DNA of 64,000 bases, from assembly GCA_028864975.1 (NCBI GenBank), contig JAGWLG010000006.1:32001-96000 (forward strand), given 5' to 3'. The first letter of the stretch is position 1; each line of letters begins with the position of its first letter. The position numbers and the translations under genes were made by a program. The stretch is from Thermoplasmata archaeon (GTDB taxonomy: Archaea > Thermoplasmatota > Thermoplasmata > Lutacidiplasmatales > UBA184). A model generated the notes under the pieces. The model searched no databases. It was given only the letters and a program-made list of their open reading frames with translations, and was not told where the DNA came from. Shown piece by piece: positions 59,919 to 64,000 of this stretch.

Positions 59919-60359
59919 ATGCCCCAGCAAGGAGAGAACGCCCCCGAGTTCAGCGCGAAGGACAGCGACGGCAGGGACTTCCGACTCACCGATTTCCGAG
60001 GCAAGCAGCGCGTGGTTCTCTACTTCTTCCCGGCGTGCTTCACCCCTGGATGCGATATCGAGGCGGGGAAGTTCCGGGACGAGTTCCCCCGGTTCCAGGG
60101 AAAGGACGTGCAGGTGATCGGCGTCTCGAACGACGCACCGGACGTGGCCAAGAGGTTCCGTGAGCACTTCCGTCTCCCCTTCCCCGTCCTTCCCGACCCC
60201 GAAGGGAAGGTCATTGGGCTCTATGGGGTGGCGGGCATGGGAGGGCGCGCGCGGCGCGTCTCGTTCCTGATCGGTACTGACGGGAAGATCGAGGAGGTCG
60301 TCGACAGTCGGCTCCCCGGGCCGCACATCGAGAAGCACCTTCGCCTCGTCGGAGGCTGA
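59919..60359 (+). CDS. bcp: Peroxiredoxin (Bcp/PrxQ)
   Basis: APEFS, VVLYFFPACFTPGC (PxxxTxxC), VIGVSND, RRVSFLIG; ATG 59919. Confidence 0.92.
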   Translation: MPQQGENAPEFSAKDSDGRDFRLTDFRGKQRVVLYFFPACFTPGCDIEAGKFRDEFPRFQGKDVQVIGVSNDAPDVAKRFREHFRLPFPVLPDPEGKVIGLYGVAGMGGRARRVSFLIGTDGKIEEVVDSRLPGPHIEKHLRLVGG

Positions 60360-60380: not shown

Positions 60381-61001
60381 CTAAAGGTGGAAGGGCGCCC
60401 CGCACTGGGGGCAGGCCTTGGCCGTAACGTCGACCAGGCTGCCGCAGTACTTGCAGGGGATCCTGACGATCTCCCGGACGACCTCACGCACCACGGTCAC
60501 GGGCCCGTCGTGCCCGGTCATCGAATGGCCTCCGCCGCGGGGCAGGATCGGGGCGATCCGAGCGAGGGCGTTCTCCTTCGCACGGTAGACCTGCTGGAAG
60601 ACCGTGCTCGGGTCGTCCACGTAGTAGCTGAAGCTCCCGACACAGACCGCACGGAGGCCGTTCGGCTCTTCGCGCAGGTCGAGCAGGCCGGAGGTCAGGT
60701 AGTAGTCCCGAACAAAGTCGACCTCGCTCTCCGGATCGATGAAGTAGGTGGCGTTCGGGTCCTTCCCGAGGATCAGGACCTTCCGGCGGGCAAAGCAACA
60801 CCCTCGGGCGGTCACGATGAGGAGGCCGGGCTGGAACACGGCGTGGCCCTGCAGGTCCCCCCGGCGGGCCTGGTACATCCCCACTAGCACGTCCTCCCCT
60901 CGGGAGAACTCCCCCTGAAGGTCCCCGACGCTCTTCTCGGTCCCCAGAGGCAAGAAATCCGAGCGGTCGTCGTTGACGCCGGGGTGAGCCACCAGCCGCA
61001 T
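60381..61001 (-). CDS. PH-like domain plus C-terminal zinc-ribbon protein
   Basis: GLLIVTARGCCF (PH/GRAM-type G-x-L-x-x-T pattern, inference); terminal helix; CKYC...CPQCGAP zinc ribbon. Confidence 0.75.
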   Translation of the reverse strand: MRLVAHPGVNDDRSDFLPLGTEKSVGDLQGEFSRGEDVLVGMYQARRGDLQGHAVFQPGLLIVTARGCCFARRKVLILGKDPNATYFIDPESEVDFVRDYYLTSGLLDLREEPNGLRAVCVGSFSYYVDDPSTVFQQVYRAKENALARIAPILPRGGGHSMTGHDGPVTVVREVVREIVRIPCKYCGSLVDVTAKACPQCGAPFHL

Positions 61002-61018
61002 CCGATCCTTCCCGAGAC

Positions 61019-61618
61019 CTAGGAGAGGTGGCCCTTCTTCTGGGCGATGCTCCGCGCGAGGGAACCGAAGGCATCCCCCACCTGGTCACCGGTCTTGGCG
61101 CTGGTCTGGAAGATCGGGCTCTCCCCGAAGGCCCCGGAGGACATGCCCCGGAGCTTCTGGCGTACCTCCTCGAGGGTGAAGGTCGCAGGGAGGTCGCTCT
61201 TGTTGACGACGAACACGGCAGGGAAGTTCCCGAGCACCTCCTCCGCCGACCTCAGCCAGCCCGAGAGGGAGTCCAGGGTCTCGGATCGCGTGCCGTCGCA
61301 CACCAGGAGGACCCCGTCGGCCTCCTGGTAGTACGCGGTGTAGATCGAGTCGAACCGCTCCTGCCCGATGATGTCCCAGATCTGGAGCCGGACCTCAAGA
61401 GGGCCCTTCGGCGTCTCGAGCTTCTCGACACGGGCCGTAACGTTCGTCCCCAGCGTCTCGACGTAGTGGGGGTCGAACATCGAGAAGACGTACTGCGAGA
61501 TCAGGCTCGTCTTGCCCACGGCGCCGTCGCCCAGGAGGATCAGCTTGGCCATGACGCGACGGGGCTTCCCGCCGGTGCCTGTCGACCCGCGCGTCGCCCC
61601 CCCCTTCCCCTGGGCCAT
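61019..61618 (-). CDS. Rab/Ran-like small GTPase
   Basis: G1 GDGAVGKT, G2 YVETLG, G3 WDIIGQE, G4 NKSD, G5 SAK; GGTGAGGGG RBS. Confidence 0.93.
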   Translation of the reverse strand: MAQGKGGATRGSTGTGGKPRRVMAKLILLGDGAVGKTSLISQYVFSMFDPHYVETLGTNVTARVEKLETPKGPLEVRLQIWDIIGQERFDSIYTAYYQEADGVLLVCDGTRSETLDSLSGWLRSAEEVLGNFPAVFVVNKSDLPATFTLEEVRQKLRGMSSGAFGESPIFQTSAKTGDQVGDAFGSLARSIAQKKGHLS

Positions 61619-61640
61619 GAGGTCCCCTCACCGCTGCGAC

Positions 61641-62660
61641 CTACGGGGGGCTATAGACCTTGAGCGTGCGCAGGAGCAACGCCCGGTCACCGGAGCCGAT
61701 GCCCCCGGAGGGCGTGCAGGCGAAGAGTGCCCCCTTGCCCTCGGCGAGGAGCTCCCCGATGATCGAGAGGAAGTTCCGCGTCGGCTCCACCCCATTGGCC
61801 GAGAGCAACATGGGGAGGTCCGAGAGAAGCACGACCCCGCTGGGGACGCGCTTGATGAACTCGTCGACCGTGTTGAGCATCGCCGGAAGGTTCCCGGCCT
61901 CGAGCGAAAGCAACCCTAGGCCCTCCCCCTGGACCAGGTCGTAGACCCGCACGTGGGAGAGGTCGCGGCGGGAGCGGAGCTCCTTGCCGTGCTCGGCGGT
62001 GATCGCGAGGCCCCCGCGGCGACGAGCTTCGCTCGCGAACAACGTGAGGGCGTCCACCCCGCCACCCGACTCGAGAAGGAGGGCCCCGGACAGGACGTGG
62101 GTCCCGCGACCCTTGGGCGCTTCGACGGGTACCCCGGGTCCGGGCAGTGGCGCGACCCCCCCCTCGGTGGGCGTGGCGGCGAGGATCCAGCGCAACTCCA
62201 GCACGGCCCGGTCGGGTCCGTCACTCTCGGCGAGCAGCTTTCCCACGACCCGCCGCTGGAGCAGTTCGGAGACCGCGCCCACCAGGAAACCGCGGGTGAA
62301 CTCCATTCGTGTCTCCCGCGAGGCCCCGCTCGCGGCCTCCGCGACCCTGGAGAGCTCGAGAAGGAGGTGGTCATCCCCGGACTCGCGGGTCTTGATCTTG
62401 GCCAGCCCGATCTGAGCGGACATCGCCGGGATGACCTCGCCCAGCTCCTTCGCGTCCCGCACCTCGACCTGGCTCTGAAGGACCTGCCCCGCCCCGCAGC
62501 GTGCGCCGAAGGCCTGGACCACCTCCGCGACCTTGTCCTCGCGAAGGTAGAGACGAAGCGTGTTCTTGAGGAAAGCGAGGTCGCGGCTCGGTAGCGCGAG
62601 ATAGTTCGCCCGGACGGGCCCCTTCTCCCCGGCTGGCACCACGCCCACGACCGACCTCAC
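61641..62660 (-). CDS. V4R (Bet3-like) domain fused to DUF835 (inactive RecA/KaiC-like) domain
   Basis: N-half ...GLAKIK...LLLEL...FTRGFLVGAVSELLQRRV...VLEL matches V4R pattern; C-half GLAITAEHG...VVLLSDLPMLLSANG...RNFL matches DUF835 pattern. Confidence 0.75.
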   Translation of the reverse strand: MRSVVGVVPAGEKGPVRANYLALPSRDLAFLKNTLRLYLREDKVAEVVQAFGARCGAGQVLQSQVEVRDAKELGEVIPAMSAQIGLAKIKTRESGDDHLLLELSRVAEAASGASRETRMEFTRGFLVGAVSELLQRRVVGKLLAESDGPDRAVLELRWILAATPTEGGVAPLPGPGVPVEAPKGRGTHVLSGALLLESGGGVDALTLFASEARRRGGLAITAEHGKELRSRRDLSHVRVYDLVQGEGLGLLSLEAGNLPAMLNTVDEFIKRVPSGVVLLSDLPMLLSANGVEPTRNFLSIIGELLAEGKGALFACTPSGGIGSGDRALLLRTLKVYSPP

Positions 62661-62727
62661 CTCCCCATCGAGCCCCGCACCTCAGATGAAAGTATCGCGC
62701 CCGCCCCGAGCGCCCCCGGGCTCGTGG

Positions 62728-64000
62728 TCAGCGCAGATGGGCGTCGGCCAGGTAGGCCAGGACCTTCTCCGCGGAAGCTTCCACGCTCGCGCCGGCCGTG
62801 TCGACGATGAGGTCGGCATGGGCGGGAGGTTCGAAGGGGTCGTTGATCCCAACCATCCTTGGGATGAGCCCCTGCGCGGCCCTCCGGTACAGGCCCTTCG
62901 TGTCCCTCTTCTGGCATTCTTCGAGGGGGCATCGGAGCCAGACCTCGACGAAGCGCTCGCCGCCGTTCGTCCGCGCCGCCTTCCGAGCGGCTTCGTGAGG
63001 CGTGCTCATCGGGACCAGCGTGGCGGCCCCGTTCTCTGCCAGCAGATGCGCGAGATGTCCCAAGCGTGCCGCGCGCCGCTCACGATCGGCCCGGGTGTGT
63101 TCGGCCGAGGTCTTGATCAATCGACGCGTCTCGGAGCCGTCCAGCACCTCCGCCCGCCATCCCTCGGCCCGTAGACCCTCCGCGACGGCCTTGGCGACGG
63201 TGGATTTGCCAGAGGAAGGGAGCCCCTCGACCCAGACGACGAAGCCCAGGCCCTCCTCGGCCCTCGCCGAGCGCCGCACGCCGTGAGGTGCTGAAGGCCG
63301 CTGGACCGAGACGGATTGACCCACCCCGTCGGGAGTGGTGGGGCCGGCCACCCGGGCGTTCGCCGGTAGGTTCCGGACGACCCGAACGACCAGCAGTCCT
63401 ACCGTGCCGACGGCCAGGAAGAGGACCACCCAACCTATCTGCTGGCTGACCCGCGTGACCGCGACGAACAGGCCGAAGGCGATGAACGCGGTGTTCGTGA
63501 ACGCGACGACCCGCAGGAAGCGACCGCGCGACAGGGAGCGGAACGCGAAGATCCCGAGAGGCACCCCGACGATCACCGGTAGGGCCAGGAGCGGCACCAA
63601 CGAAAGCGACGCGGTGGTGAAGAGGGCCTTCTGCGGGACCAACAGCGTGAAGGTCAGGTACGATACCGTCGTGAGGCTGGTCTCTGCGACACGGATCTGC
63701 GCCAGCGTGCACCGGAACTCGTTCTTCCCAAGGTTCTGGTTGGTCCAAAAGGCCGCGAGCGGCGGGCCCGAGATGGTCGTGAGCGCGTAGAGGAACCCGA
63801 TCCCTGTCCCTAGCCAAGGACCCCACTTCTGCTCCTGACGCACCGGGCGACGGACCCCCAGGATCTGGAGCATGGTGAAAGGTAGCAACGTCGAAAAGAC
63901 GATGATCCGCACGGTCGGAGTCGAGAGGGAGGTCAGCGCGAACGTCCCGAGCGCCACTCCCGGGGCGATCCCCAGGATCACGGGCAGCGCCCGTCGCCAA
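62728..64000 (-). CDS. TauE/SafE-like membrane domain fused to adenylyl-sulfate (APS) kinase domain (5'-truncated by window end)
   Basis: Frame open to 64000; TM region with ISGPPLAAFW; C-terminal GLPSSGKST, FVEVWLRCPLEECQKRDTKGLY, GINDPFEPP. Confidence 0.88.
   Translation of the reverse strand, partial: WRRALPVILGIAPGVALGTFALTSLSTPTVRIIVFSTLLPFTMLQILGVRRPVRQEQKWGPWLGTGIGFLYALTTISGPPLAAFWTNQNLGKNEFRCTLAQIRVAETSLTTVSYLTFTLLVPQKALFTTASLSLVPLLALPVIVGVPLGIFAFRSLSRGRFLRVVAFTNTAFIAFGLFVAVTRVSQQIGWVVLFLAVGTVGLLVVRVVRNLPANARVAGPTTPDGVGQSVSVQRPSAPHGVRRSARAEEGLGFVVWVEGLPSSGKSTVAKAVAEGLRAEGWRAEVLDGSETRRLIKTSAEHTRADRERRAARLGHLAHLLAENGAATLVPMSTPHEAARKAARTNGGERFVEVWLRCPLEECQKRDTKGLYRRAAQGLIPRMVGINDPFEPPAHADLIVDTAGASVEASAEKVLAYLADAHLR

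Follow-up and report, generated by a model that had tools for sequence, protein, structure and literature searches.

A conserved gene pair of Thermoplasmatota archaea encodes a Rab-like GTPase and a V4R-fold protein that probably form a module linked to the KaiC/DUF835 network

Does the Rab-like small GTPase of a Thermoplasmata archaeon have a dedicated protein partner encoded beside it? The question is raised by three minus-strand genes in the 64-kb stretch of DNA analysed here, referred to as the window (G000:C119:32001-96000; GC content about 68%), which comes from an assembly of 3.6 Mb that is 89.6% complete. As shown in Table 1, the genes encode a protein with a V4R-fold domain and a DUF835 domain (gene 1), a Rab-like GTPase (gene 2), and a species-specific protein with a zinc ribbon (gene 3). 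An earlier reading of this stretch, called the original prediction below, had proposed an operon in which the GTPase is controlled by a V4R protein that senses a ligand, with a pleckstrin homology (PH)-like protein as effector or membrane adaptor, possibly a forerunner of the transport protein particle (TRAPP) and its Rab. We found that the conserved unit is the GTPase-V4R pair. We consider it likely that genes 1 and 2 form a two-protein module, a GTPase switch with a V4R-DUF835 partner, which is linked to the archaeal network of KaiC and DUF835 proteins.

To describe the neighbourhoods, loci were collected from one genome per species by GTPase alignment only, which avoided bias towards V4R, and 78 of the 576 confirmed loci were kept. 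Nearly all of them belonged to Thermoplasmatota (Thermoplasmata, Methanomassiliicoccales, Poseidoniales, Marine Group III and Proteinoplasmatales), and one lineage belonged to Jordarchaeia. V4R and DUF835 neighbours were detected with hidden Markov models made from the two halves of gene 1. The 78 loci contained 62 short GTPases, defined as open reading frames (ORFs) of at most 225 aa, and a V4R gene was immediately adjacent on the same strand in 45 of the 62. It was located downstream of the GTPase gene in 44 cases and upstream in a single one, which is the close kin of the window. The partners were of two types, V4R plus DUF835 (33) and V4R only (13, mainly from marine groups). About 17 of the pairs had overlapping stop and start codons (1-11 nt), and 16 were separated by 0-25 nt. 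When neighbouring ORFs were clustered all against all, the V4R gene was the sole widely shared neighbour family, present at 46 of the 78 loci; the genes flanking the pair varied by lineage while the pair stayed. In the GTPase tree, 29 of the 33 GTPases linked to V4R plus DUF835 fell into one group.

The pairing was also found in a single polypeptide. P0057, a continuous ORF of 527 aa, contains Ras, V4R-like and DUF835 regions. The gene order was inverted in the window's genus alone, with the linkage of GTPase and V4R kept. Genes 1 and 2 were both present in all four genomes of this genus. In 20 genomes from five sister genera of the same family, most of them more than 90% complete, searches yielded no GTPase, and gene 1 only once, at a contig end in an assembly with 7% contamination (G019). 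Conservation of the neighbourhood had been set beforehand as a test that could refute the original prediction, and the GTPase-V4R pair is what proved to be conserved. The adjacency, the fusion and the co-occurrence support the predicted partnership of the V4R-DUF835 protein with the GTPase. Because the pairing survives inversion, changes of the flanks and loss of DUF835, and is fused in one protein, genes 1 and 2 very probably act together.

Gene 2 encodes a complete Ras-superfamily GTPase, as had been claimed. It matched Pfam Ras (PF00071) with 107 bits and NCBIfam small_GTP with 76 bits, and the G1 (GDGAVGKT), switch-I (Thr58), G3 (DIIGQE, with the catalytic Gln), G4 (NKSD) and G5 (SAK) motifs were all present. 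The 60 best matches in the PDB were all Rabs, among them Sec4, Rab7, Thor-Rab, Rab8 and Rab1, with E-values from about 1e-24 to 1e-21. When a profile of the Thermoplasmatota GTPase family was compared with solved structures, the Thorarchaeota Rab was the best match (159 bits), followed by Rabs only. The stretch RLQIWDIIGQERFDSIYTAYYQEADGVLLVCDGT of gene 2 aligned with Sec4; its ERF was not conserved across the wider GTPase family. Prenylation cysteines were absent from the C-terminus, which ends in AQKKGHLS, and the N-terminus carries a genus-specific extension of about 22 aa rich in Gly, Lys and Arg. Judged by its sequence, Rab-like would be a fair description of this protein, one that stops short of membership in the Rab family. 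Rab-like GTPases have already been reported from one Thermoplasmatales archaeon and from Aciduliprofundum, and these proteins lack C-terminal cysteines and sit on long unresolved branches (PMC4915359).

Long-form GTPases of the same family, which carry a C-terminal extension of about 100 aa, formed their own clades, often in tandem arrays and without V4R neighbours. Two such arrays of five to six genes encoding proteins of 270-300 aa are listed in Table 1. The extension had no Pfam match. One genome (G032) contained 32 matches to this GTPase family.

The N-terminal half of gene 1 was examined by structure prediction. The AlphaFold2 model, based on an alignment of 12 sequences, had a mean predicted local distance difference test score (pLDDT) of 80.5 and showed two domains, residues 22-161 and 188-339, with pLDDT mostly between 85 and 93 in the first. 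The best fold match of this domain was the phenol-sensor domain of PoxR (Z 15.2), followed by yeast Bet3 in the TRAPP-Ypt1 complex (3cue_B, Z 13.4), BcsD (Z 12.8), mouse Bet3 (Z 12.7), the V4R protein MJ1460 (Z 11.3) and Thorarchaeota TRAPPC3 (Z 10.9); other Bet3 chains matched at Z 12.6-12.7. Foldseek gave E-values of 2.5e-6 to 1e-4 for this set of proteins, and of 1e-5 to 1e-6 for DmpR, Bet3 and PoxR. A structure search of this domain had likewise been named beforehand as a refuting test, and a V4R-like fold was found. In sequence searches, Pfam V4R did not match gene 1 or seven close relatives at E<=0.1, and an NCBIfam search of gene 1 gave no V4R match either. However, relatives of gene 1 in other families of the same class, 310-370 aa long, passed Pfam V4R and DUF835 and also matched XylR_N; V4R (PF02830) and XylR_N (PF06505) are the models of the V4R superfamily. 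Aligned with hhalign, the gene-1 family (8 clusters) matched this canonical V4R-DUF835 family end to end over 309 columns with 99.8% probability (E 9e-28). The homology of gene 1 to V4R follows from the fold match together with the profile-profile match to relatives that pass V4R and XylR_N, so the predicted N-terminal V4R domain stands though Pfam gave no match.

In the canonical V4R-DUF835 partners, C101, E124, C127 and C135 (A4 numbering) were invariant or nearly so. Their spacing is that of what we take to be the zinc site of sensor-type V4R domains, by comparison with MopR and PoxR. In the gene-1 family all three cysteines were replaced, with Met or another non-Cys residue at the aligned positions. 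Gene 1 is a divergent, cysteine-less member of the V4R-DUF835 family. V4R domains of PoxR, MopR and Bet3 bind small hydrophobic ligands (PMC10933270). With the Cys and Glu residues of the canonical zinc site lost, the ligand-sensing function that had been proposed is doubtful in this genus, and the V4R domain is therefore more likely to be a protein-binding adaptor than a small-molecule sensor.

The C-terminal domain of gene 1 (residues 184-339) matched FlaH (Z 12.6), PH0284 (Z 11.4) and KaiC (Z 10.8 and 10.2) in fold. PF05763 (DUF835) aligned with residues 214-331; the score of 25 bits (E 1.7e-5) fell short of the 33.1 that Pfam sets as its cut-off. The same model matched all eight members of the gene-1 family, with a best E-value of 1.9e-8. 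The hhalign match to the canonical family also spanned the whole domain. Together with the fold, these matches support the DUF835 assignment. A Walker A P-loop (GxxxxGK[ST]) was not found after the first strand of the domain, in agreement with the published label 'iKaiC' for DUF835 (PMC5847659). The genome of the window (G000) contained 28 DUF835 matches. About 19 of these were located in long ORFs (roughly 1000-1430 aa, many of 1000-1200 aa) and point to a large set of receptor-like proteins with a DUF835 output. KaiC gave 13 matches in the same genome, and the GTPase family was represented by a single member. PAS-DUF835 and REC-PAS-DUF835 architectures were among the results of the gene-1 family search.

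A clade of GTPases without V4R neighbours adjoined a gene for an active KaiC-like ATPase instead. This gene was located immediately upstream at three loci (L045, L052 and L081), where it is followed by a short and then a long-form GTPase gene, and about 0.8 kb downstream, beyond a convergent gene, at a fourth locus of the clade (L035). The adjacency in this clade is probably one evolutionary event. Without involving gene 1, this adjacency connects the GTPase family with proteins of the KaiC type. The KaiC gene was also considered as a general neighbour of the GTPase and was rejected in that role, being present at only 5 of the 78 loci.

From the folds, the homology, the adjacency, the fusion and the co-occurrence we infer the physical binding of the GTPase by V4R, a regulatory relation between the two and the link to KaiC. 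Genes 1 and 2 would be transcribed from their own promoter into a leaderless or short-leader mRNA that probably also carries gene 3. The V4R domain would then bind the GTPase, either as a regulator, that is, a guanine nucleotide exchange factor (GEF) or a GTPase-activating protein (GAP), or as an effector that depends on the nucleotide state. V4R is the likely GTPase-binding part because it is common to all partner types. The sequence would fit a GEF, a GAP and an effector alike. The DUF835 domain would be a likely adaptor that couples the pair to the network of KaiC-like ATPases and DUF835 proteins, which is greatly expanded in this genome.

Several observations weigh against this module. The GTPase clade of the window sits on a stem of 1.59 substitutions/site with weakly supported placement, and it falls outside the main clade linked to V4R plus DUF835; function may have drifted in this genus. 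The role given to DUF835 is taken from the literature label cited above and from the fold. An adjacent V4R gene was lacking for 17 of the 62 short GTPases, at least one of which (L080) lies at a contig end. The window's own genome encodes a second V4R-like-DUF835 protein without a GTPase neighbour, which means that the architecture does not need a GTPase. Finally, the 78 loci come from related genomes, so that the counts overstate independence. Orthologues of the second V4R-like-DUF835 protein were found in other genomes of the same genus.

Some of these observations would also suit a simpler reading, in which the two genes are neighbours through inherited gene order only and their products do not interact. 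Most loci belong to one phylum, where synteny could be inherited, and both the paralogue and the many GTPases without a V4R neighbour are in keeping with it. It is nevertheless highly improbable, since the pair is kept where its flanking genes change from lineage to lineage, the stop and start codons overlap in many pairs, the linkage is kept in spite of the inverted order here, a fusion protein exists, and the two genes coincide in presence and apparent absence among the genera of the window's family. The module proposed in the original prediction had a third member, the product of gene 3. In favour of such a three-part model, with a ligand-sensing V4R protein regulating the GTPase and the PH-like/zinc-ribbon protein as effector or membrane adaptor, the three genes lie closely spaced behind one promoter-like motif, V4R domains elsewhere bind small hydrophobic ligands as cited above, the N-terminal part of gene 3 looks PH-like, and its zinc-ribbon tail is common to the cytoplasmic tails of surface proteins. 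Gene 3 itself and the replaced zinc-site cysteines speak against this model, which we consider unlikely. Two genomes of the same genus (G001 and G002) lack gene 3, the GTPase gene being followed directly by a convergent peroxiredoxin gene, and a third (G003) has a gene for a NUDIX hydrolase in its place. Within this genus, insertions at the site that follows the GTPase gene are variable, and gene 3 is a species-specific add-on outside the conserved unit. Nor do its sequence comparisons help the three-part model: residues 1-165 had no detectable relatives among 5.8 billion clustered proteins, Pfam bPH_3 (PF14470) did not match at E<=1 or in a family search of the own genome, and the single-sequence AlphaFold2 model was unusable (pLDDT 38).

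The shared fold raises a further reading, in which the V4R domain corresponds to Bet3/TRAPPC3 in function as well as by homology and is the exchange factor of the Rab-like GTPase or part of it, with the eukaryotic TRAPP-Rab relationship descending from such a pair. In TRAPP the catalytic core is the longin pair Bet5/Trs23, and Bet3 contacts Ypt1. The fold matches to Bet3 and TRAPPC3, the preference of the GTPase family profile for Thor-Rab and then eukaryotic Rabs, the conservation and single fusion of the pair, and the published homology of V4R and Bet3 (PMC2253512) all speak for this reading. It would be the first genomic link of its kind, as the GTPase genes of Asgard archaea do not as a rule share operons with such partners (PMC10933270). 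The bacterial sensor PoxR, however, outranks Bet3 in the fold search, and the canonical partners, with Pfam XylR_N and V4R and the Cys/Glu zinc site, are of the prokaryotic sensor type. The operon contains neither a longin nor a Roadblock gene. A longin subunit (Bet5/Trs23) was not found in the operon or the conserved neighbourhood, with no genome-wide search for longins made, and the only Roadblock match of the genome lies on another contig. Published trees could not place the Thermoplasmatales Rab-like proteins (PMC4915359). We regard this reading as unlikely; the label 'proto-TRAPP' draws on the shared fold and the adjacency. The analogy with TRAPP is real at the level of the fold; homology of function by descent is quite improbable. 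Equally doubtful is the wider scenario in which V4R-fold proteins of archaea were dedicated partners of Rab-like GTPases before the rise of eukaryotes, the Bet3-Rab contact within TRAPP descends from a two-gene module like that of Thermoplasmatota, and the cysteine-less, adaptor-like V4R domain of this genus parallels the change of a zinc-binding sensor into a scaffold of the Bet3 type.

The two-protein module resembles several known systems in part. MglA-MglB, the actinobacterial conservon CvnA-D and Rup group 1 also place a Ras-superfamily GTPase beside a dedicated small partner, and in these operons the pair is likewise conserved as a unit and predicted to feed other signalling systems (PMC4316618). 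In contrast to these systems, the partner described here has a V4R fold and an inactive KaiC domain rather than Roadblock/LC7, and the GTPase is Rab-like with a catalytic Gln (DIIGQE) and not of the MglA type. TRAPP-Rab1/Ypt1 and Thorarchaeota TRAPPC3/Thor-Rab share with it the association of a Bet3/V4R fold (Z 10.9-13.4) with a Rab-like GTPase (PMC10933270), and among solved structures Thor-Rab is closest to the Thermoplasmatota GTPase family. Unlike TRAPP, the operon holds no longin subunits, a dead KaiC domain is fused to the partner, which by Pfam is of the XylR_N/V4R sensor type, the GTPase lacks prenylation cysteines, and the association is known from genes and not from a solved complex. 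A sensor or receiver domain is likewise joined to DUF835 in archaeal signalling proteins, for example those with REC-DUF835 or REC-PAS-DUF835 architecture (Galperin et al. 2018, PMC5847659); gene 1 differs in having V4R as its input domain and in its linkage to a small GTPase gene. Surkont and Pereira-Leal (2016, PMC4915359) described archaeal Rab-like GTPases that are, like gene 2, single proteins without C-terminal cysteines on long branches.

None of these surveys describes the pair. The survey of prokaryotic GTPase operons by Wuichet and Sogaard-Andersen does not mention V4R (PMC4316618), Galperin et al. (2018) do not mention a GTPase link of DUF835 (PMC5847659), and Surkont and Pereira-Leal (2016) did not examine gene neighbourhoods and noted no V4R partner (PMC4915359). 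A description of a GTPase-V4R operon was not found in the literature searched, a body that did not include Makarova et al. (2017). For Asgard archaea, genome organisation does not reveal which regulator serves which GTPase (PMC10933270). Thermoplasmatota provide a pairing of Rab-like GTPase and Bet3-fold protein that is one-to-one, encoded in an operon and, in one case, fused. Cultured members of the phylum (Methanomassiliicoccus) make two questions accessible at the bench, namely whether a V4R/Bet3 fold can regulate a Rab-like GTPase and how a GTPase switch connects to the archaeal KaiC/DUF835 network. Particular to the window are its inverted gene order, the lack of cysteines in the V4R zinc site, a conserved and probably leaderless promoter, a single GTPase copy, and a third gene of the PH-like/zinc-ribbon kind. 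With its lost zinc site, inverted order and single GTPase copy, the window is a natural variant for comparison.

Gene 3 had been described as a PH/GRAM-like protein with a zinc ribbon. The ribbon was borne out by weak Pfam matches to Zn_ribbon_3 and Zn_Ribbon_1 (E about 2e-4); the PH-like part is suggested by look-alikes only. Language-model and predicted-structure searches consistently returned bPH_3/YokE-like, GRAM and PH_TFIIH proteins, whether the full-length protein or just residues 1-165 were compared, with ESM-Atlas feature scores of 0.91-0.94 to bPH_3/zinc-ribbon clusters and template modelling scores of 0.52-0.56 to GRAM and PH_TFIIH models. On these predictions the PH-like reading is a reasonable lead and probable. 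Residues from about 150 to 204, a short linker and the ribbon, were the only stretch with sequence matches. The last 40 or so residues (VVRE.V..PCKYCG.L.D.T.K.CP.CGAP), which comprise the ribbon and about 15 residues before it, form a tail module with counterparts at loci L014-L020. In these relatives the module is the extreme C-terminus of proteins with a signal peptide, an ectodomain and a transmembrane segment, at 43-68% identity, and it may be a common cytoplasmic docking tail. Gene 3 is probably a recent, species-specific passenger or accessory; its tail may bring it to the cytoplasmic site where the tails of surface receptors also go.

All three ORFs, predicted as minus-strand genes with gaps of 22 nt (genes 1 and 2) and 17 nt (genes 2 and 3), were present and showed a strong coding signal. 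GC content was 0.89-0.94 at third codon positions (0.89 in gene 3) and 0.43-0.47 at second positions, the pattern of real genes in this genome, which was not found in the alternative frames overlapping genes 1-3. A TATA-like sequence had been noted near 62690, and TACTTTCAT is indeed located at 62686-62694, within the promoter-like motif GATACTTTCAT. This motif (GATAnnnTCAT) occurs once in the window, both strands considered, and lies 25-26 nt 5' of the gene-1 start codon at all six orthologous loci, namely the window, G001, G002, G003, G019 and L021, the last a metagenome-assembled genome named 'Thermoplasmata archaeon' that is the nearest named relative of the locus. As for the ribosome-binding sequence proposed for each gene, genes 2 and 3 are each preceded by a purine-rich string resembling a Shine-Dalgarno sequence; in gene 1 the candidate GGAGGTGA overlaps the first GTG (62660). 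An alternative GTG at 62648, eight bases past GGAGGTGA, is used by the public gene call (335 aa). The GTG at 62660 is favoured because its spacing from the promoter motif fits a leaderless or near-leaderless mRNA, and the gene-1 mRNA is probably leaderless or short-leadered and made from a conserved archaeal promoter element. Whichever start is used, the promoter of the three-gene operon is its own and separate from that of the gene upstream.

Table 1. Positions of the features in the window and at the compared loci.
Feature	Coordinates	Strand	Remarks
Gene 1: V4R-fold and DUF835 (inactive KaiC) protein, 339 aa	61641..62660	-	
V4R/Bet3-fold domain of gene 1, residues 23-165	62166..62594	-	Fold searches; without the canonical Cys triad
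DUF835/KaiC-RecA-fold domain of gene 1, residues 184-339	61644..62111	-	Fold and PF05763; no Walker A
Gene 2: Rab-like Ras-superfamily small GTPase, 199 aa	61019..61618	-	
Gene 3: species-specific protein, 206 aa, with probable PH-like N-terminal part (about residues 24-160) and C-terminal zinc ribbon	60381..61001	-	
Zinc ribbon CxxC...CxxC of gene 3, residues 181-204	60390..60461	-	Pfam Zn_ribbon_3, Zn_Ribbon_1
Tail module of gene 3	60381-60500	-	
Promoter-like motif GATACTTTCAT (GATAnnnTCAT, 11 nt)	62687..62697	-	25 nt before the gene-1 GTG
GTPase-V4R-DUF835 fusion P0057	L103:3001-4584		Thermoplasmatota metagenome-assembled genome GCA_030595765.1; adjoins a UbiA prenyltransferase gene
V4R-like-DUF835 paralogue, 34% identity to gene 1	L101:5020-6063 (G000:C122)		Between ThiI and alpha/beta hydrolase
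Cassette of KaiC-like ATPase, short GTPase and long-form GTPase	L045:2712-4807, L052:2695-4807, L081:3266-5356		
Tandem arrays of long-form GTPases	L047:425-4846, L071:2802-8285		
NUDIX hydrolase gene in the gene-3 slot of G003	L102:3603-4040	-	
TauE/SafE transporter-APS-kinase fusion	62728-64000, on into L104:1-725	-	
Kelch-propeller and CarboxypepD_reg surface protein, 1023 aa	L104:841-3912, G000:C119:96340-99411	-	

Downstream of the three genes, a convergent peroxiredoxin gene ends at 60359. A Kelch surface protein is encoded nearby, and a longin-like tail on this receptor was considered; it is unsupported by sequence, the C-terminal 160 residues having no Pfam match. Upstream on the same strand, a gene fusing a TauE/SafE transporter to an adenosine 5'-phosphosulfate (APS) kinase ends at 62728. 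The kinase half is unmatched in G003, and the fusion is retained in G001, G002 and G019.

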